Made by a program: the position numbers and the translations under genes | Shown: in pieces, positions 2,772 through 63,862 of the stretch | Layout: each line of letters starts with the position of its first letter | How positions within the stretch are numbered: position 1 is the first letter of the stretch | The notes under the pieces: model-generated | The model's input: the letters and a program-made list of their open reading frames with translations, nothing else | Databases searched by the model: none | What the model was told of the DNA's origin: nothing | From: Patescibacteria group bacterium | GTDB taxonomy: Bacteria > Patescibacteriota > Minisyncoccia > Phycocordibacterales > UBA918 | Length of the DNA: 64,000 nucleotides | NCBI GenBank assembly: GCA_040386275.1 | Contig: JAZKFU010000003.1 | Span: forward strand, 46,554-110,553 | Direction of reading: 5' to 3'

Positions 2772-3704
2772 TCAAGTGAATAAGATGAAATAGCCTGCGG
2801 TAATTACTAAAACATACAGCACCCGCCGCATGACTTCTTTTGGCTTCGCCTCATGAGTGGCGACACTATCGGGCAATAGTGAAGCAAACACAATCGTGAT
2901 TAATAAAATAAATACAAATTTCACTCCATCAAGCGCTTGCACTACCGCCACGTCTCCCAAGTCTGTTGCTTTAAGCAAGAGGAAGGCGGCAACTCCGGCT
3001 AGAATTTTGGCGAGTATCACTAATGCACCGGTCTTTTTAGTAGTTGTACCGGTTTGTTCACGAATTTTTTTGTAGTAGGTAGGGACAAGTAACAGTGAGA
3101 GCGCGAAGAGTACAAAACAGACGCGCGACCAAAAGAAACCATCGTCAAAGTTTGTTTCGAGGAACAAACCCTTCATGGTAATAAAGTGGAGCGCAAAAAA
3201 TAATCCACTGTGAAAAACATGGATGACGTCTTCCATCTTAGGAATGGTTTGTGCTACCAAAAGTGTTCCTAAAGACAGAACTACCACACCCCACATAAAA
3301 TTGGGCGAAAACGCCACATCCAAAAACAAATACACCATTCCGAATGACGAAATGGCCGACACTGCCCCAATCACCGGCATCACGTTTACTGCCTCTGCGT
3401 TACGCAAAGCCGAGTACATCGATACGAGGGCCATAAAAAACGTGTAGGCAGCCAAAAACGACATTGATACCACCTGAATAGTCGGCGACTCAACATTAGA
3501 GAAATGAGGAAACCCGACGGATCGTAACCCGGGAATAAACCCCACCAAATAAATCACCACCCAACCACCAGTTAAAATACACGAATAAAACGCGTAGACG
3601 AAGGGTCGTGGTAGAGCCTTATCGTCAGAAACAATATATTTATCGAGGAATGCCACCAACGCATTAAGGAATTGCCCGAGAGTTGCGAGTAATATCCATG
3701 CCAT
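2772..3704 (-). CDS. Polytopic integral membrane protein (about 9 TM), hypothetical; possible transporter in the glycoside hydrolase locus
   Basis: 310-aa ORF with multiple hydrophobic helices; no recognisable motif. Confidence 0.55.
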   Translation of the reverse strand: MAWILLATLGQFLNALVAFLDKYIVSDDKALPRPFVYAFYSCILTGGWVVIYLVGFIPGLRSVGFPHFSNVESPTIQVVSMSFLAAYTFFMALVSMYSALRNAEAVNVMPVIGAVSAISSFGMVYLFLDVAFSPNFMWGVVVLSLGTLLVAQTIPKMEDVIHVFHSGLFFALHFITMKGLFLETNFDDGFFWSRVCFVLFALSLLLVPTYYKKIREQTGTTTKKTGALVILAKILAGVAAFLLLKATDLGDVAVVQALDGVKFVFILLITIVFASLLPDSVATHEAKPKEVMRRVLYVLVITAGYFILFT

Positions 3705-3711
3705 TATACCT

Positions 3712-4935
3712 CTATTCTACTACAGCATTCGTGATACAAATTTGTTTATACACGTACGCAGAGGAACGAGGGGTTCGCTCTTGCGTAGCGTAATCTACCG
3801 CAATTAATCCAAAGCGCATTCCAAAGCCTAGTGCCCATTCGTAGTTATCAAGCAATGACCAGTACATGTGCCCGCGTACGTCAGCTCCTTTTTCAATGGC
3901 CCGCCAGGTTCCTAACACTTGTCCTTTAATATATTCAGCCCGCATACTATCAGCAGCGTCAGCAACGCCACCTTCTGACACAAACAAAGGTTTGTTGTAG
4001 CGCGCGAGCATCATGAGCGCTGTTTCAATTTTTTCTGGCGCAAAATTCCAATCCATGTCAGTCTTCCGCCAGGTTCTGTCGTCACCAAACTGCGTATAAA
4101 AATAATAATTAAGACCAATCGAATCACAACAGTCTTTCGTGCGATTCATAAATTTGTAGGTCCAATTGTAGTTTGCGATACGGGCTTTGATTTTATTAAC
4201 GAGACTCTTGTTCGCATCAAACACAATTACATGGTGCACAAAACTAACTTCCGTAGTTGGGGAAACTTTTTTAATGGCTTTGTAGGCTGCATTGTGACTT
4301 TTGGCCAAATTTTTCATCACCCGCAAATACAGAAATAACGGATTGATGCCTTTACTCGCTCTTGAATCAAGCATTTTGCCAGAGTTCGTAATAGAAATTA
4401 CATCCGTTACCGCAAAGCGTTTAAATGGAGGCCAACTACCGCGCAACCAGCCGTTACTCGCAAATACATTCGGTTCGTTCATGGTAGAAAAGTGATCACA
4501 AAGGTCACCTAATTGCTCCACTACGTACGCACAATACCGCGCAAAAATTTCGGGTGAATTTTTTTGTTCAAAGCTCCCTTTTTCAGAAAACCATAGTGGT
4601 TGAGTAAAATGCCAAATTGTAACGTAGGGTTTTAGTCCGCGTGCATGTAGGGCCTCGAGCACCTTTCGGTAGTGAACTATTGCCTCTTCATTAAATTTTC
4701 CTGGGGTAGGCTCAATCCGCGCCCACTCGACAGATAATCGGTGTGCGGTGTGGCCAAGCGATTTAGCTAAATCAAAATCAGCTTCGTACCGATTATAGTG
4801 ATCACAAGCGATTCCACATTCAGGCACGCGTCTTGCCCGAGCCGCTTCGGCCCAGTCGGTGTTATCAATACCGCCTTCGACTTGATAACTTGCCGTAGCC
4901 GAACCCCAGTAAAATCCTTCGGGAAATTTTTTCAT
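3712..4935 (-). CDS. Beta-glucosidase, glycoside hydrolase family 1
   Basis: N-terminal FPEGFYWGSATASYQVEGG. TMNEPN (acid/base) and FVSEGG (nucleophile region) motifs. Length 407 aa. Confidence 0.9.
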   Translation of the reverse strand: MKKFPEGFYWGSATASYQVEGGIDNTDWAEAARARRVPECGIACDHYNRYEADFDLAKSLGHTAHRLSVEWARIEPTPGKFNEEAIVHYRKVLEALHARGLKPYVTIWHFTQPLWFSEKGSFEQKNSPEIFARYCAYVVEQLGDLCDHFSTMNEPNVFASNGWLRGSWPPFKRFAVTDVISITNSGKMLDSRASKGINPLFLYLRVMKNLAKSHNAAYKAIKKVSPTTEVSFVHHVIVFDANKSLVNKIKARIANYNWTYKFMNRTKDCCDSIGLNYYFYTQFGDDRTWRKTDMDWNFAPEKIETALMMLARYNKPLFVSEGGVADAADSMRAEYIKGQVLGTWRAIEKGADVRGHMYWSLLDNYEWALGFGMRFGLIAVDYATQERTPRSSAYVYKQICITNAVVE

Positions 4936-4944
4936 AATTAAATG

Positions 4945-5035
4945 TTTCTCTTCTTACAGAAGCTGTACACCTTGTCAGTATTTTTTACAAAAATACTAGG
5001 CAAGGTCTTGCGAAAGTGCCTATGCACTTTCTCAC
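4945..5035 (+). repeat. Hairpin element core, copy A (same family as the tRNA-linked elements)
   Basis: cttcttacagaagctgtACACCTTGtc-agtattttttacaaaaatact-aggCAAGGTcttgcgaaagtgcctatgcactttc aligns with the tRNA-linked elements at 41634-41710 and 58001-58066. Flanked by an ~18-bp direct duplication of the GH1 start region (4917-4934 vs 5049-5067). Confidence 0.65.
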
Positions 5036-5154
5036 CCCAATAGAATTCTTCGGGAAATGTTTTTTTCAACCCGTTAGAAATTTGTTTGTCCATATGAATT
5101 GTAAATAAGTCTAACAGATTAAATCATTTTAAATATTTGTCATTATACCCTAAA

Positions 5155-5380
5155 GACTTTCAGAAACGAGTACAGTTCTAGGTGAGAAGTGACTCAATGT
5201 CACTTCGCAAGACTCATTGAGAGATTTTACAAAAATATCCAATGAGTGGACAGCTTCTGTAAGAAGGGCAAGGAAATTGTACAAAATGCGGTCCAGCGAT
5301 TTTCCTTAGGAGGAAAAATCGGGACATAAATTCAGAATAATCGCTTCGCTCATTTCTTCATTTGCCATTTGTGAAAGTTC
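5155..5380 (+). repeat. MITE-like intergenic repeat, copy B (long form, ~225 bp) containing an inverted copy of the hairpin core
   Basis: About 85-90% identical to 14850-14960 over the first ~110 bp, homologous through ~aattcagaat. Internal segment 5172-5262 is the reverse complement of element A. Hairpin GAAGTGAC-tcaat-GTCACTTC. Confidence 0.75.
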
Positions 5381-14730: not shown

Positions 14731-14849
14731 AAATTTATAGGTGTAAGTATACTACCACTAAATTATTATTTTTTTATTTTTCTAAAATAAGTTATGTTCA
14801 CTCAAACGTTTTCCTAAATTATATGCAATCTTTTAATTTACCGGTAGGG

Positions 14850-15085
14850 TTTCATAAACGAGTACAGTTCTAGGTGAGAAGTGACTCAATGTCACTTCGC
14901 AAGACTCATTGAGGGATTTTGCAAAAATAACCAATGAGTGGACAGCTTCTGTAAGAAGCGAAAGGACAAAGACGGCAGCTGGTCCAGCGATTTTCCCAAG
15001 GGAAGAAAAAATCGGGACAGAAATTCAGAATTGTCGCTACACTCTGTTCTTCATTCCACAACGAAATGTGCCGTTTCTGGAAGCC
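14850..15085 (+). repeat. MITE-like intergenic repeat, copy C (long form) containing an inverted hairpin core
   Basis: Near-identical to copy B over ~110 bp. Right end caacgaaatgtgccgtttctggaag matches copies D/E. ORFs 14909..15142 and 14938..15168 inside it are judged spurious. Confidence 0.75.
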
Positions 15086-15094
15086 GTCTCCCTT

Positions 15095-41610: not shown

Positions 41611-41769
41611 GAGCTGCCGATCAGGGACTCGAAGCTATACAGCTTCAGTACACCTTGTCGCTCATTTGTTTCCTATCGTAACAAAAGAGCTGGCAAGGTC
41701 TTCGAGTCCCTAATCGGACTAGCAATGGCAAAGGCCACAAATGTATTCACATTTGTGGCCTGCCTTTGC
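41611..41769. repeat. tRNA-Gln-linked hairpin element (copy F) plus spacer hairpin
   Basis: 41613-41633 (gctgccgatcagggactcgaa) duplicates the tRNA-Gln 3' end at 41770-41790. Core 41634-41710 has the ACACCTTGTC/GGCAAGGTC stem and ends in ttcgagtccctaatcgg, an inverted copy of the tRNA 3' end. Perfect hairpin GGCCACAAAT-n-ATTTGTGGCC at 41732-41760. Confidence 0.7.
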
Positions 41770-41839
41770 TGCCGATCAGGGACTCGAACCCCAATGACTT
41801 CCTCCAGAGGGAAGCATCCTACCATTAGATGAATCGGCA
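41769..41839 (-). tRNA. tRNA-Gln (anticodon CTG)
   Basis: Minus-strand cloverleaf: acceptor TGCCGAT/ATCGGCA (U1-A72 as in bacterial tRNA-Gln), D-loop with GG, anticodon stem CTTCC/GGAAG with loop CTCTGGA, T-arm TGGGG-TTCGAGT-CCCTG. Ends are +/-2 nt. Confidence 0.7.
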
Positions 41840-57808: not shown

Positions 57809-57940
57809 AAATAATAGATATACAGAAAATTACCTGAGCGTATCACCTCCCAAAAACCCTAACGGGTGCTCAACAGCTATTGTATCATACTACCCATTTT
57901 GGGGTGTTTATAAGTTTTTGTAACCCTTTAAATCTTTAAG

Positions 57941-58068
57941 CAAAACAAAATACCCAAGCAAAGCTTAGGTATTTTATTTGTGCTGGAGGAGGGACTTGAA
58001 ACTTACAGTTTCAGTACAGGTTGTCGCTATTTTTTCAAAATAGCTGGCAACCTTTTCAAGTCCCTGGG
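57941..58068. repeat. tRNA-Leu-linked element (copy G): 60-bp direct repeat (spacer hairpin + tRNA 3' end) flanking a 66-bp hairpin core
   Basis: 57941-58000 is identical to 58069-58128, which runs into tRNA-Leu. Core 58001-58066 is acttacag-tttcagtACAGGTTGtc-GCTATTTT-ttc-AAAATAGC-tgg-CAACCTtt-TTCAAGTCCC. Terminator-like palindrome AAAATACCCAAGC-AAA-GCTTAGGTATTTT in each repeat. Confidence 0.8.
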
Positions 58069-58108
58069 CAAAACAAAATACCCAAGCAAAGCTTAGGTAT
58101 TTTATTTG

Positions 58109-58189
58109 TGCTGGAGGAGGGACTTGAACCCTCAAGCCTTGCGGCATGCGATTTTGAGTCGCACGTGTATACCATTCCACCACTCCAGC
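58109..58189 (-). tRNA. tRNA-Leu (anticodon CAA), class II with long variable arm
   Basis: Acceptor GCTGGAG/CTCCAGC + A73, anticodon stem TGCGA/TCGCA with loop CTCAAAA, variable arm GCC-GCAA-GGC, T-arm GAGGG-TTCAAGT-CCCTC. 81 nt. Confidence 0.85.
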
Positions 58190-58326
58190 GGTGTGGAAAG
58201 AGTGTAGCAAACTATTGTCATTTCGACTAGACAGTCAATATAGATTTACAGGGACAGGAGTTCTACCCAAGACTAGTGGTCATTTCTTGTATTTTTTGTA
58301 ATTTTCAGGTACCCTACACCCATCGC

Positions 58327-60050: not shown

Positions 60051-60121
60051 GGGCCTATAGTTCAGTGGTAGAATACCGGTTTCCAAAACCGTTGACCGAG
60101 GTTCAAGTCCTCGTGGGCCCG
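60051..60121 (+). tRNA. tRNA-Trp (anticodon CCA)
   Basis: Acceptor GGGCCTA/TGGGCCC + G73, D-arm GTTC-AGTGGTA-GAAT, anticodon loop TTCCAAA, T-arm CGAGG-TTCAAGT-CCTCG. Confidence 0.85.
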
Positions 60122-60182
60122 CTGAATAAACGAAGTGAGAGCAGAGGGACCACGATAGCAGCTTTTGAAAAAAGCGTTGCGC

Positions 60183-60278
60183 GGACTTGAAGAGGTTGCC
60201 AGCTATCTTTTTGACGAAGGAGAAAAGTAGTGACAACCTGTACAGAATTCGTAGAATTCAAGTCCTCGTGGGCCCGCC
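60183..60278. repeat. tRNA-Trp-linked hairpin element (copy H)
   Basis: Starts with GGACTTGAA (inverted T-loop). Core AGGTTG-cca-GCTATCTTTT...AAAAGTAGT-ga-CAACCT-gtacag. Ends with ttcaagtcctcgtgggcccgcc, a direct copy of the tRNA-Trp 3' 21 nt. Confidence 0.75.
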
Positions 60279-60288
60279 ACCGAAAACT

Positions 60289-60327
60289 AAAATACCACCA
60301 GCAAAAAAGCTGGTGGTATTTTAGTTT
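60289..60327 (+). terminator. Rho-independent terminator (AAAATACCACCAGC-aaaaaa-GCTGGTGGTATTTT + T-run)
   Basis: Perfect 14-bp palindrome directly after element H, analogous to the hairpins after the Leu and Gln elements. Confidence 0.6.
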
Positions 60328-60494
60328 AGCAAGTGCCCAATGGCACTTGCGGCGGTGGCGGGAGACGGAAGCATGTTGCGTTAGCAACAGCTGAGTCGGG
60401 GTCGCGGAAATTTCTGAAAGAAATATATTTATCTGCCTATACCTCAGTATACATACATTAAAAGTAGCTTAGAAGTCAAACTCACCAAATCATT

Positions 60495-61222: not shown

Positions 61223-62284
61223 TTATCTGCAAAAAGTTGATGCTCGCAATACTCTGTATCGGCTATCACTGTAATAACCACTGCCATTACTAATAATAAT
61301 TCCTCTGTTTGTTCCTGCAGCATGGATAACTTGTGAACAACCATTATTCATACAAATTACCACATGACCTGCGCCATTAGTTCTATGAATCAATGCATCG
61401 CCAGTTTGAAGACTGCTAGGGCTACCGATGGGAGCGGAGTAGCGTATCATATCTCCCGTATAAGTACCGATTCGACGACATCCTGCTGCAGCATATGCAT
61501 CGTTAACAAGCTCAGAACAGTCTGTATAGCCCGGACTACCAGTACAAGAATTTCGAAGAGGCTGACTATATTGGCATCGTCGTTGTCGTTGTGCTTCCGC
61601 AAACCGTACAATAGCACTATTGCCTCCAGTACCAATTGGAGCTACATAATCTCCTCCACCGCCGCCCGCACCACCACCACCTAACTCAGACCCAGGTACA
61701 GCTACCGCGGTTGGATCTGGCTCTTCTGCCTCAAGGTATTCTACTTCATCTTGCTCGACCTCATTAAATACAGTTTCAACTTGGTTCTGGCAAGTTACCT
61801 CACTCCAAAACAAATACCCAGAAGCGGTTCCGCCCGCGACAATTTGCCCAGGATTACCATCTGTTCCAACTAACGCCCGCATGATGGTGTCTACAATAAG
61901 CCAGGCAGCTAAAATAATCATAAAGCCAACAATGGCGTTTATAAATGAGGACTTGGCTTCATCGAGCGCATGATGATTCCCCCCTGACGTTACCAACTTC
62001 ACTCCCGCAATAGCGAGCAAAAGTGCGAAGATAACAAATAGTATCCCAATGAGCCAGGTAATTAATCCATTGGCCATCGACACAACATTACAAGCGCTAC
62101 AATCTAAACCAGTACAACCCGACAACTGCGCTAAACCAAGGTCACCTGCAAACGCAGACGGCACAAAAAACCCAAACAGAAAGACTAGTAAGAATATTAT
62201 GGGAACTATTTTCATATTATAGTTTGGCAGTATCGGGACAGAAACTAAACCGGTAATCAAACCCAGAAGCAACTTCATCAACAT
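61223..62284 (-). CDS. VirB2/TrbC-pilin-like double-TM module fused to a CHAP/NlpC-P60-type peptidoglycan amidase/peptidase domain
   Basis: Signal peptide (MKIVPIIFLLVFLFGFFVPSAFA), Cys-rich loop CTGLDCSAC, two hydrophobic helices around KLVTSGGN...EAKSS, Gly-rich linker. C-terminal DCSELVNDAY (Cys) and GHVVIC (His) resemble a CHAP catalytic pair. Start may be the internal Met. Confidence 0.55.
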   Translation of the reverse strand: MLMKLLLGLITGLVSVPILPNYNMKIVPIIFLLVFLFGFFVPSAFAGDLGLAQLSGCTGLDCSACNVVSMANGLITWLIGILFVIFALLLAIAGVKLVTSGGNHHALDEAKSSFINAIVGFMIILAAWLIVDTIMRALVGTDGNPGQIVAGGTASGYLFWSEVTCQNQVETVFNEVEQDEVEYLEAEEPDPTAVAVPGSELGGGGAGGGGGDYVAPIGTGGNSAIVRFAEAQRQRRCQYSQPLRNSCTGSPGYTDCSELVNDAYAAAGCRRIGTYTGDMIRYSAPIGSPSSLQTGDALIHRTNGAGHVVICMNNGCSQVIHAAGTNRGIIISNGSGYYSDSRYRVLRASTFCR

Positions 62285-62714
62285 ATCCCGGAACCGTAAC
62301 TACATATGATAGTTGGCACATTTCCTCTTCATCTATTTTTAATAAATCTTTTAAATAGACTTCGGCTGCTAGCCTACTTTGAGCAAATGGTTTTTGAAGA
62401 AGCGCTATATTAAAGGTGCCAGTATTTTTATCAAACATGACAACGTAGTTAGGTAGTTTGCTCGGAGTTTCTGCAGAAGGGAAAGTATTGCCCAAGGAAT
62501 ACAAACCAGGGTTTTGAACATCCGGCGCTACGGATTCATCTTTCAAAAAATTATTGGTTACTACATTACCTTCGGTAGACGGAAAGGTGACTTGCGAATC
62601 AGTGTATTCAACAGTAGTTACTGGTGTTGAATTATTTTTTGTATATATAATTCCCCCAATCACTATTACAAGCACAATGATTACCGCCAATATGATATAT
62701 ACGTTTTTATTCAT
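62217..62714 (-). CDS. Hypothetical membrane-anchored protein
   Basis: 165 aa with an N-terminal TM, lying between the two pilin-like paralogs. Confidence 0.4.
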   Translation of the reverse strand: MNKNVYIILAVIIVLVIVIGGIIYTKNNSTPVTTVEYTDSQVTFPSTEGNVVTNNFLKDESVAPDVQNPGLYSLGNTFPSAETPSKLPNYVVMFDKNTGTFNIALLQKPFAQSRLAAEVYLKDLLKIDEEEMCQLSYVVTVPGYVDEVASGFDYRFSFCPDTAKL

Positions 62715-62725
62715 GTTGTTTTATG

Positions 62726-63862
62726 TTAGCCACCATAACGCGTAATACATTGCATCGCTCGTGAATTGCAATTGGCACATGTCCAATCATTATACCCATT
62801 ACGCCTTACTATATTAACTGCTACCCTGGTATTACAACTGGCATTCTGACAACTTGTAGCATGGTCACTACAGGAACCCCCAACGTTATATAAATTCCAG
62901 GTCGTTCGCACAATTTGAAATAGCCCACAAGCACTAGAATTAGAACCAGGATGAGTAACATTATATGGTGGAGTTGCGGGGTTACCCGAGCTCTCGGTCA
63001 TAGCAATACACGACATTACATTTGCCTGTGTAATAGTCATGCCAGCCGCGCGTAACGCAGGGACGCTACAGTAGGTATTAGTACATTGCGGTAAACTACC
63101 CCCTGTCCCACCACCACTGACTTGTCGCGGAGCACACAGTACAGCACTTCCGGCAGCGTTAAGGGTTGGCGTACCAGGCGCAGCGCGACACTGTGCTTCT
63201 TGAGCCGAACAATCATACTCATTTACTCCCGGCGGTCCTGGCAGAAGTCTACAGGCGGCATTATAAGAACCAGCTGGAGCTGAAGAACCTCCTGCAGTAC
63301 TCCCCGCCGGCACCCAACCCTGCACACCACCCAGCCCTTCCTCAAGCGAAAGGTACTCAATAGCATCTTGTGTAACGGTAATCGAGCGAGCCAGTGGCTG
63401 ATCAACACAGCTTATTTGATTCCAGACACCAAAACTATATGTCCCATCTTGAAGCAACAAAGCGCGCAACCCATAGTCGAGCACCAACCACGCCGCTAAC
63501 ACAATTAAGTATCCAATCAACAAATTAGTCATGGAACTTTTCGCTTCTTCTTTCGCACTAGAATTACCCGCTGACGTTACTAATCGTGCCCCCGCCACAA
63601 CGATCAAAATCGCCGCAATCACCCCGAGTATCATCACGAGCCACCCCACAACATTGTTAACCAATACCACCACATGACATGCCTGACACGGCGGTTCACC
63701 TGCTCCGCCACACGCTGGCACCAAACCAGCCGCCCCGACCGACACCGGAACAATAAATATACAAACCATTACCACAAGGGCTACCAGGAGTTTCTGCATT
63801 ACCAATAAGCTTACCACACAACCCCTTTCTAAATACCCGAAACTGTGATAATTTGTACCCAC
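62726..63862 (-). CDS. VirB2/TrbC-pilin-like double-TM module fused to a lytic transglycosylase (SLT) domain
   Basis: N-terminal module paralogous to 61223..62284 (RLVTSAGN...EAKSS...VLAAWLVLD). C-terminal IAMTESSGNP and GLFQI, the ES / GLxQ signatures of family-1 lytic transglycosylases. Cys-rich. Confidence 0.6.
   Translation of the reverse strand: MGTNYHSFGYLERGCVVSLLVMQKLLVALVVMVCIFIVPVSVGAAGLVPACGGAGEPPCQACHVVVLVNNVVGWLVMILGVIAAILIVVAGARLVTSAGNSSAKEEAKSSMTNLLIGYLIVLAAWLVLDYGLRALLLQDGTYSFGVWNQISCVDQPLARSITVTQDAIEYLSLEEGLGGVQGWVPAGSTAGGSSAPAGSYNAACRLLPGPPGVNEYDCSAQEAQCRAAPGTPTLNAAGSAVLCAPRQVSGGGTGGSLPQCTNTYCSVPALRAAGMTITQANVMSCIAMTESSGNPATPPYNVTHPGSNSSACGLFQIVRTTWNLYNVGGSCSDHATSCQNASCNTRVAVNIVRRNGYNDWTCANCNSRAMQCITRYGG

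Follow-up and report, generated by a model that had tools for sequence, protein, structure and literature searches.

The MITE (miniature inverted-repeat transposable element), REP (repetitive extragenic palindromic), BIME and REPIN repeats of bacteria, such as the Correia, RUP, ERIC and Rickettsia palindromic elements, are small, non-coding and multi-copy, lie mostly between genes, form hairpins, are patchy between strains and sometimes nested, and are presumably mobilised in trans. The tyrosine-integrase elements of T-loop sites, and their integrase-less derivatives, leave the tRNA gene intact, are flanked by a direct repeat that starts in the T-loop and extends to the tRNA 3′ end, and have an exact empty site; a repeat of this extent is reportedly the signature of T-loop-class tyrosine-integrase sites. 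Genomes of the candidate phyla radiation (CPR; Patescibacteria) measure about 1 Mb and are usually considered poor in mobile DNA. Here we analyse a stretch of 64,000 nucleotides (nt; “the window”) from a Patescibacteria group bacterium (assembly GCA_040386275.1, contig JAZKFU010000003.1), in which a hairpin core lies just 3′ of tRNA-Leu(CAA) between the two copies of a 61-nt exact direct repeat. The family to which it belongs shares the characters just listed for both groups, and our best reading, to which we give a probability of about 0.65, is that the feature at tRNA-Leu represents one member of a Patescibacteria-specific family of non-autonomous mobile elements that are small (about 65-130 nt), non-coding and defined by their structure.

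Read along the minus strand, the locus consists of the tRNA, a trailer hairpin, an inverted segment (A′), the core, a TGTAC linker, a tail hairpin, and then a second copy of tRNA nucleotides 54-73 with its own trailer hairpin (Table 1). The initial annotation of this DNA had described a 60-bp duplication here, which is real and is contained within the true repeat of 61 nt. The proximal copy comprises tRNA nucleotides 54-73 (58109-58128) and a 41-nt trailer containing the hairpin AAAATACCTAAGC-TTT-GCTTGGGTATTTT (58075-58103), and the distal copy holds the same tRNA nucleotides at 57981-58000 and the hairpin at 57947-57975, the duplication thus taking in the trailer hairpin besides the tRNA 3′ end. 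The core hairpin is built of a stem P2 (AAGGTTG/CAACCT), a CC/GA internal loop, a stem P3 (AGCTATTTT/AAAATAGC) and a GAA loop cap, and the 3′ strand of the tail hairpin merges into the T-loop copy. The long hairpin proposed between the repeat copies folds as described, both as RNA (-30.7 kcal/mol for an 88-nt stretch, z = -5.1) and as DNA (-20.8 kcal/mol, z = -6.6), when compared with shuffled sequence. The segment GGGACTTGAA (58055-58064, minus strand) is, as claimed, the exact inverse of the T-loop segment TTCAAGTCCC; what had been missed is its membership in a 9-21-nt inverted copy of the tRNA 3′ end, discussed below. A further 14 nt beyond the exact repeat (57927-57940 versus 58055-58068) align with six mismatches, all transitions; as comparison with a close relative (L205, below; compared loci carry L numbers) identifies the distal stretch as native flank, its likeness to the inverted T-loop segment may either be accidental or hint at how targets are chosen. 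The possibility of a second, decayed copy of the element on the distal side of the repeat was rejected as not significant, 523 of 2000 shuffles scoring equally well.

The conserved unit that we find across the family is an optional 5′ hairpin (hp1, with a YGGGR loop), the core of P2, CC/GA internal loop and P3, the TGTAC linker, and a tail hairpin with a GTA loop. Conservation of these hairpins, which the initial annotation had suspected from stem swaps between copies in the window (ACCTTG/CAAGGT, AGGTTG/CAACCT and CTCATTG/CAATGAG, all of them real), is borne out by strong covariation in the alignment of 101 copies from which we built a covariance model. Standard pairs are formed in 94.2% of alignment cells, versus 34-53% when the partners are slid, and compensatory changes occur in 13 of the 20 pairs (in 5 of the 6 pairs of the tail stem); none of 500 shuffles attains the observed pairing and covariation values. 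The 5′ side of P2, which lay outside our search pattern, switches from GG to CC jointly with its 3′ side in 97/101 copies. The unpaired CC/GA internal loop and TGTAC are almost invariant, the hairpin caps are G-N-A loops, and the fold is strand-specific.

The search pattern, TTGCCAGCT-N10-40-GACAASSTGTAC, run on representative genomes of 185,579 species, matched in at least 118 places. Among the matches listed, the tail hairpin is present in 96 of 124 hits, and the tail-bearing hits belong only to Kaiserbacteria, Paceibacteria/Parcubacteria, Nomurabacteria, Saccharibacteria, “Patescibacteria group” or unnamed metagenome-assembled genomes (MAGs); the named non-CPR hits among them have no tail and lie within coding DNA, and are thus chance matches. 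The covariance model found 152 copies in 664 kb of CPR loci. A viral origin was rejected, the five pattern hits in IMG/VR being chance matches in GC-rich coding DNA without the tail hairpin and no true copy being found in that scan. The element matches no Rfam family: only tRNA exceeded the gathering threshold in the window and 19 loci, and a permissive scan of 57850-58250 gave chance-level hits only. Hammerhead and other three-way-junction ribozyme cores and kink-turn motifs were judged by eye and rejected, the junction sequences being unfitting.

The presence/absence polymorphism of the family is seen most cleanly at tRNA-Trp. In L205, a locus from a MAG with 95-96% DNA identity to the window across ~6 kb, miaA, tRNA-Trp and the native terminator stand without an element in flanks 95-100% identical to those of the window, from which the site differs by an exact 134-nt insert and one extra 21-nt copy of TTCAAGTCCTCGTGGGCCCGC. 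The same tRNA is empty in two more distant relatives (L120 and L121) and occupied in L129 and L208, and the empty sites for which the initial annotation had proposed to look are therefore at hand. No core match was found in the 13.5 kb of L205 that span both tRNA loci. Away from tRNA genes, L004 is syntenic with the window at 2.3-5.7 kb and shares with it the copy that we call A, without the 312-nt segment (5064-5375) that bears copy B. An empty site was also sought for tRNA-Gln, where the relatives found are not syntenic.

At tRNA-Leu the history appears to be different. The tRNA-Leu(CAA) of L205 is unoccupied and is a different allele, matching at 61 of 84 positions although the genomes are ~95% identical. 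Homology breaks off a few bases past the promoter-like site and is restored no more than ~2 nt from where the distal repeat ends, break points which indicate that the whole transcription unit, tRNA and element together, was exchanged. The L205-type allele is also found in L206 and L208, where it is occupied by an element of a different subfamily that has all the parts, namely the split inverted copy, hp1 and the direct copy. Both of these relatives, whose ParB is 67-69% identical, also have a free-standing LAGLIDADG_3 homing-endonuclease gene immediately downstream of the occupied tRNA-Leu locus (L206 1970-2641, L208 2663-3238); neither the window nor L205 has it, and it is possible that this gene is linked to the exchange of tRNA-Leu cassettes. 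A different small element, with the motif ..AATAAGTAAAC-TNCT-TTACTTATT.. plus GCTGTGAGTTTACGA.CCA.C, lies in one to three units upstream of the relatives' tRNA-Leu (L205 5641-5769; L206 2820-3204; L208 3588-4000); the ~11 nt that begin the tRNA (GCCGCGGTGGC) are duplicated ahead of every unit, a 5′-end counterpart of the 3′ duplication.

The elements had been thought to insert into the T-loop region of tRNA genes; this holds at tRNA 3′ ends, where only about a third of copies lie (51 of 141 sequence-profile hits are on the strand of a tRNA and no more than 300 nt downstream of it), others being found at protein-gene 5′ ends, tRNA 5′ ends, 5S rRNA genes and within other copies. Five of the 141 hits lie just upstream of a tRNA and the remainder are intergenic. 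The host tRNAs represent about 20 isoacceptors, and the tRNA-linked copies are always on the tRNA strand, while the copies away from tRNAs are antisense to the open reading frames (ORFs) on both sides in 21 cases and sense to both in 21. In these loci 47 of 92 tRNAs are occupied, a figure biased because the loci were picked for holding a copy; in unbiased loci obtained via MiaA, one of ~10 assessable tRNA-Trp genes is occupied.

Where hp1 is present, the element joins its target as ...GG(T)/(T)GAGAAA (the slash marking the junction) at most of 50 5′ junctions. The GG(T) sites hit include the tRNA T-loop (G53/T54-C56), tRNA position 7/8 (L092, L095, L112), 5S rRNA, the single-stranded parts of other copies (copies nested in loops or junctions at L002, L089, L096, L107 and L118) and Gly codons near gene starts: codon 12 of a GH1 glycosidase gene (window copy A, L004, L081), the GCFWG motif of MsrA (L029, L007) and the GKG of a P-loop kinase (L015, L054). 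In the 5S rRNA tandem of L057 (~3270-4060), an intact gene with its terminator is followed by a second copy broken by two elements, one of them inverted, without local duplication. P2 shows no guide-like covariation with the target motif, GG-type and CC-type P2 sharing the GG(T) junction, and in-frame insertion within long ORFs, as known for Rickettsia palindromic elements, was likewise rejected, since only spurious short ORFs overlap the copies. A further target is a small RNA-like motif, entered at GGGGT/C/GAGAG. This second structured motif of tRNA-downstream regions, ...GGCGGGAGACGG..GAGTCGGGGTCGAGA.ACTTAGTA..hairpin..ACTTAGT.A.TCGTGACC, has no Rfam hit; its start pairs with the tRNA 3′ end and trailer, and it occurs at window 60352-60405 (where it is truncated), L120 2690-2830, L121 1900-2200, L045, L049, L077, L101 and L116.

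Insertions carry target duplications of 9-130 nt that leave one copy of the gene complete, the 5S rRNA insertions having none. Gene-restoring duplications occur at GH1, MsrA, the P-loop kinase and tRNA 5′ ends as well as at tRNA 3′ ends. At gene starts, the duplication extends from slightly before the start codon as far as the insertion point, and the complete gene lies downstream of the element. In all six gene-start cases compared (window 4936-5069, L004 317-449, L081 5838-6094, L029, L015 and L054), the upstream duplicate begins an ORF of 42-83 codons that runs through the element and stops between -4 and +27 nt from the real start; in L015 this stop and the true start overlap as ATGA. Reading through the upstream ORF, with termination and re-initiation, probably preserves expression of the gene. 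The GH1 duplicate has an ACA codon indel that lies in opposite copies in the window and in L004.

At tRNA genes, the core is preceded on its 5′ side by 9-21 nt that repeat tRNA nucleotides 54-73 in inverted orientation, and in many cases hp1 interrupts this stretch near the acceptor/T-stem boundary. The inverted copy is cognate to the neighbouring tRNA at 35 of 35 loci (mean exact run 10.3 nt, versus 5.9 nt for non-cognate tRNAs), and it matches the T-loop of its own tRNA even at loci whose distal copy deviates (L037 and L109, tRNA-Met with A54; L022). The inverted copy stops exactly at the complement of T54, where it abuts the core. The start of the distal direct copy ranges over positions 53 to 57, since the element's own tail hairpin ends in bases (often GTTC) that blend into the T-loop. 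One junction is therefore precise and the other variable. The direct repeats at tRNAs measure 9-91 nt, the long ones being tandem units (L053, L114, L040, L034), and many distal copies are decayed. The duplicated tRNA ends never have an added CCA and they extend into the trailer, which argues that they were not copied from mature tRNA.

The window holds exactly six copies by the covariance model, at tRNA-Leu, tRNA-Gln and tRNA-Trp and as copies A, B and C (Table 1); all three of its assessable tRNAs are thus occupied, a fourth, tRNA-Tyr, lying at the window edge. The direct repeats at tRNA-Gln (41768-41788/41613-41633) and tRNA-Trp (60102-60122/60257-60277) confirm that the architecture recurs at these genes with the 3′ end of the cognate tRNA each time. 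The native terminator of tRNA-Trp (60283-60327) is found beyond the distal copy. None of this is an artefact of assembly: an independent Logan assembly is 100% identical over the whole Gln locus, and more than 40 unrelated MAGs have the same architecture. The Logan contig of the window's own organism (L001) terminates within the Leu repeat.

Table 1. Positions of the element copies and their parts within the window.
Feature	Position	Strand	Basis or remark
tRNA-Leu(CAA), intact	58108-58189	minus	ARAGORN; Rfam tRNA 59.5 bits
Promoter-like site of tRNA-Leu	58238-58211	minus	promoter scan
Leu, proximal copy of 61-nt repeat	58068-58128	minus	exact repeat comparison
Leu, A′: inverted copy AGGGACTTGAA of own T-loop and T-stem, nucleotides 54-64	58055-58065	minus	abuts core
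Leu, core hairpin	58018-58054	minus	covariance-model hit 57994-58056, 81.4 bits; covariation; fold
Leu, conserved TGTAC linker	58014-58018	minus	
Leu, tail hairpin TGAAACT-GTA-AGTTTCA (7 bp, GTA loop)	57997-58013	minus	
Leu, distal copy of 61-nt repeat	57940-58000	minus	repeat comparison; comparison with L205
tRNA-Gln locus	41613-41839	minus	ARAGORN, repeat comparison, covariance model
Gln, tRNA	41768-41839	minus	
Gln, spacer hairpin	41727-41767	minus	
Gln, A′	41701-41723	minus	
Gln, core	41627-41702	minus	
Gln, tail	41630-41647	minus	
Gln, distal 21-nt copy	41613-41633	minus	
tRNA-Trp locus	60051-60277	plus	ARAGORN, repeat comparison, covariance model
Trp, tRNA	60051-60122	plus	
Trp, A′a	60146-60155	plus	
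Trp, hairpin	60156-60182	plus	
Trp, A′b	60183-60191	plus	
Trp, core	60190-60263	plus	
Trp, tail	60244-60259	plus	
Trp, distal 21-nt copy	60257-60277	plus	
Copy A, within 5′ end of GH1 glycosidase gene	4903-5069	minus	covariance model, repeat comparison
A, gene-start duplicate	5034-5069	minus	
A, hp1	5010-5033	minus	
A, core	4945-5009	minus	covariance-model match
A, true gene start	4903-4935	minus	
Copy B, variant core CTCATTG/CAATGAG, nested in larger repeat	5184-5271	plus	covariance model (core match 5199-5271)
Copy C	14876-14963	plus	covariance model (core match 14891-14963); 95% identical to copy B across 117 nt

Copies B and C are hosted by a larger framework repeat, closed by GACTTTCAGAAACG...CGTTTCTGGAAGTC, which occurs in the window at 2647-2773 (where its middle part differs), 5152-5375 and 14844-15090; in L004 (2600-2930) the framework houses two element copies in opposite orientations. 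Genes with T4SS-pilin, NlpC/P60 and conjugal-transfer pilin-like domains (window 61223-63862) adjoin the tRNA-Trp locus and are conserved in L205.

Pfam and NCBIfam scans of 16 window ORFs found housekeeping genes only, as did those of the 10 clusters of neighbouring proteins that recur most often across 98 loci, and no family was associated with the element. Among these 26 scanned proteins there was no transposase, reverse transcriptase or recombinase, including TnpA, TnpB and RAYT (the REP-associated tyrosine transposase). Beside the Leu and Trp loci lie two unknown ORFs, which are not related to one another. An autonomous version was sought through the 3′ arm of hp1 and an AAGASS motif; these are always followed by a core variant and never by an ORF.

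The initial annotation had proposed a miniature mobile element that regenerates the tRNA 3′ end and is mobilised in trans, and this is largely upheld by the empty site, the covariation and the lack of an adjoining enzyme gene, although it proves too narrow. We propose that insertion probably proceeds by single-strand template switching. From a single-stranded intermediate (single-stranded DNA or RNA), the element would be copied into a target nicked after GG by an enzyme whose gene lies elsewhere in the genome, the enzyme being that which does the copying; DNA synthesis would then re-copy the adjacent target to give the direct repeat, the polymerase could fold back on the target to give the inverted repeat, and selection in small genomes would keep only those insertions that rebuild the gene. 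If so, the family might represent a new class of prokaryotic mobile element, with a three-hairpin fold and no terminal repeats, copied in at GG(T) via a single-stranded (possibly RNA) intermediate, with the gene end re-synthesised by template switching and tRNA-element units exchanged between strains as cassettes; this wider proposal we put forward only tentatively.

Several observations weigh against a mobile element. With no transposase, reverse transcriptase or recombinase among the proteins scanned, mobilisation in trans is an assumption, and an empty site can come from precise deletion between direct repeats as well as from gain. At tRNA-Leu the closest relative differs by replacement of the whole transcription unit and not by simple insertion, which suggests that recombination or horizontal transfer of tRNA-element cassettes may matter as much as transposition. 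The apparently orthologous GH1 copies (window, L004 and L081) differ by compensatory substitutions, and direct repeats are 93-100% identical within a genome where orthologues diverge by ~35% (L015 versus L054); together these could point to host-function selection or gene conversion, and for the within-genome identity repeated insertion at hot spots is a possible cause too. Nor does fold-back or template switching readily explain how, at seven loci, hp1 comes to split the inverted copy at the acceptor/T-stem boundary.

These points bear on an alternative that we regard as unlikely and yet deserving of weight, namely that the element is a structured RNA with a function for its host, as a 3′ trailer or 5′ leader in which alternative pairings of the inverted, own and distal copies control tRNA maturation or expression, the repeats being kept by selection. 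Such a function would account for the strong covariation and strand-specific fold, for the retention of that fold through compensatory changes in the GH1 copies of three genomes, for the confinement of tRNA-linked copies to the tRNA strand, for the short ORFs that cross the element and stop beside the real start at every gene-start insertion, and for the homogeneity of the direct repeats; moreover, when the Leu transcript is folded as a whole, the 5′ acceptor strand of the tRNA pairs with the distal 3′ copy in the minimum-free-energy structure. It sits badly with the emptiness of the same tRNA-Trp in a ~95% identical genome and two other relatives, with patchy occupancy and decayed distal copies, with the 21:21 split in orientation of the copies away from tRNAs, and with nesting of copies within one another and in 5S rRNA. 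The initial annotation had also offered a 3′ trailer RNA conserved in tRNA operons; this is unsupported as a general explanation, because the element is absent at the same tRNA in the closest relatives and its non-tRNA copies occur in both orientations. The mobile element that we favour may nevertheless act at the RNA level.

Somewhat harder to sustain is an IS200/IS605- or REP-type origin, in which a PATE- or REPIN-like element would travel in the form of single-stranded DNA, driven by a Y1 HUH transposase (TnpA or RAYT) whose gene lies elsewhere. The palindrome-associated elements of IS200/IS605 and the REPs of RAYTs resemble the present family in their end-adjacent hairpins, strand-specific structure and insertion directly 3′ of a short motif, and the hairpins at both ends of the non-tRNA type without terminal inverted repeats, the G-N-A triloops and the nesting in single-stranded parts of other copies all fit. 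However, such elements insert without target duplication, while duplications of 10-130 nt accompany most copies here; the motif here is GG(T), and the scanned window ORFs and neighbour families yielded no TnpA, TnpB or RAYT. The cTTACAG that had been taken as a hint of IS200/IS605 ends is the reverse complement of the tail-hairpin loop CTGTAAG, which elsewhere reads CGTAG or TGTAT; TTAC therefore falls in a variable hairpin loop and is not a conserved target, and the hint fails.

We consider it quite improbable that the copies are scars or miniature (CIME-like) derivatives of integrative elements that recombined at the T-loop by means of an integrase, with the repeats as attL and attR. The direct repeat does span the T-loop to just beyond the tRNA 3′ end, and the empty site is exact. 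Against this, the inserts measure 68-134 nt (134 nt at the empty site described) with neither an adjacent integrase nor a larger parent element in the ORFs scanned or the 98 loci, the T-loop junction varies from 53 to 57 and the repeat from 9 to 91 nt, att sites have no inverted target copy or hairpin covariation, and the identical core stands with its GG(T) junction at protein-gene starts, tRNA 5′ ends and 5S rRNA. Least credible of all is a guide-RNA gene, an omega-RNA- or CRISPR RNA-like scaffold whose 20-nt guide would home a transposon to tRNA genes: a structured scaffold is indeed followed directly by 20-21 nt identical to the neighbouring tRNA, reminiscent of the homing spacers of type V-K CRISPR-associated transposons, but the neighbours scanned are housekeeping genes with no transposase or TnpB, IscB or Cas12 nuclease gene beside or overlapping the element, non-tRNA copies have no such segment beside the tail, the segment measures anything from 9 to 91 nt, and comparison with the empty site reveals it as a target duplication.

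If the elements are mobile as we propose, essential single-copy tRNA, rRNA and protein genes of minimal CPR genomes would be colonised without killing the host; to enter essential genes and rebuild them by duplication would be an unusual strategy, which may indicate a new enzymatic mechanism. Six copies of one family in 64 kb contrast with the view of these genomes as poor in mobile DNA. The pseudo 3′ halves and duplicated start codons confound annotation of tRNAs and gene starts, and the family breaks short-read assemblies, while its copies could be used as strain-level markers. Should the fold act as RNA, it would constitute a widespread and so far undescribed structured RNA. Full-text searching, together with a survey of prokaryotic MITEs in 183,232 genomes (PMC11602168), brought up no such CPR elements, and the family is apparently undescribed.

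Set beside known systems, the family matches none as a whole. With the eukaryotic SINE retroposons (short interspersed nuclear elements), which move by target-primed reverse transcription, it has in common its non-autonomy, its tRNA-related sequence, and variable duplications with one precise and one variable junction; it differs in being bacterial, in having no A-rich tail and no known partner reverse transcriptase (none was seen in the scanned ORFs), and in drawing its tRNA sequence from the target. Class C group II introns also choose structured sites by terminators downstream of genes, whereas the present elements have no ribozyme domains (no Rfam hit) and are far too small. The T-loop integrative elements share the flanking direct repeats; the present inserts, of ~130 nt, differ in having no integrase, a variable junction and an inverted repeat of the target. 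Of the marks of a classical MITE, small size, lack of coding capacity, multiple copies and presence/absence polymorphism are found here; terminal inverted repeats of its own are not, there being none in non-tRNA copies and the inverted segment at tRNAs being target-derived and tRNA-specific, nor is a fixed duplication of 2-10 bp (9-130 nt here, and none at 5S rRNA). The family thus fails defining tests both of the classical MITE and of integrase-borne islands, and its identity lies instead in a covarying three-hairpin fold common to several CPR classes, accompanied by long, variable, gene-restoring duplications and, at tRNA genes, by an inverted copy of the target.

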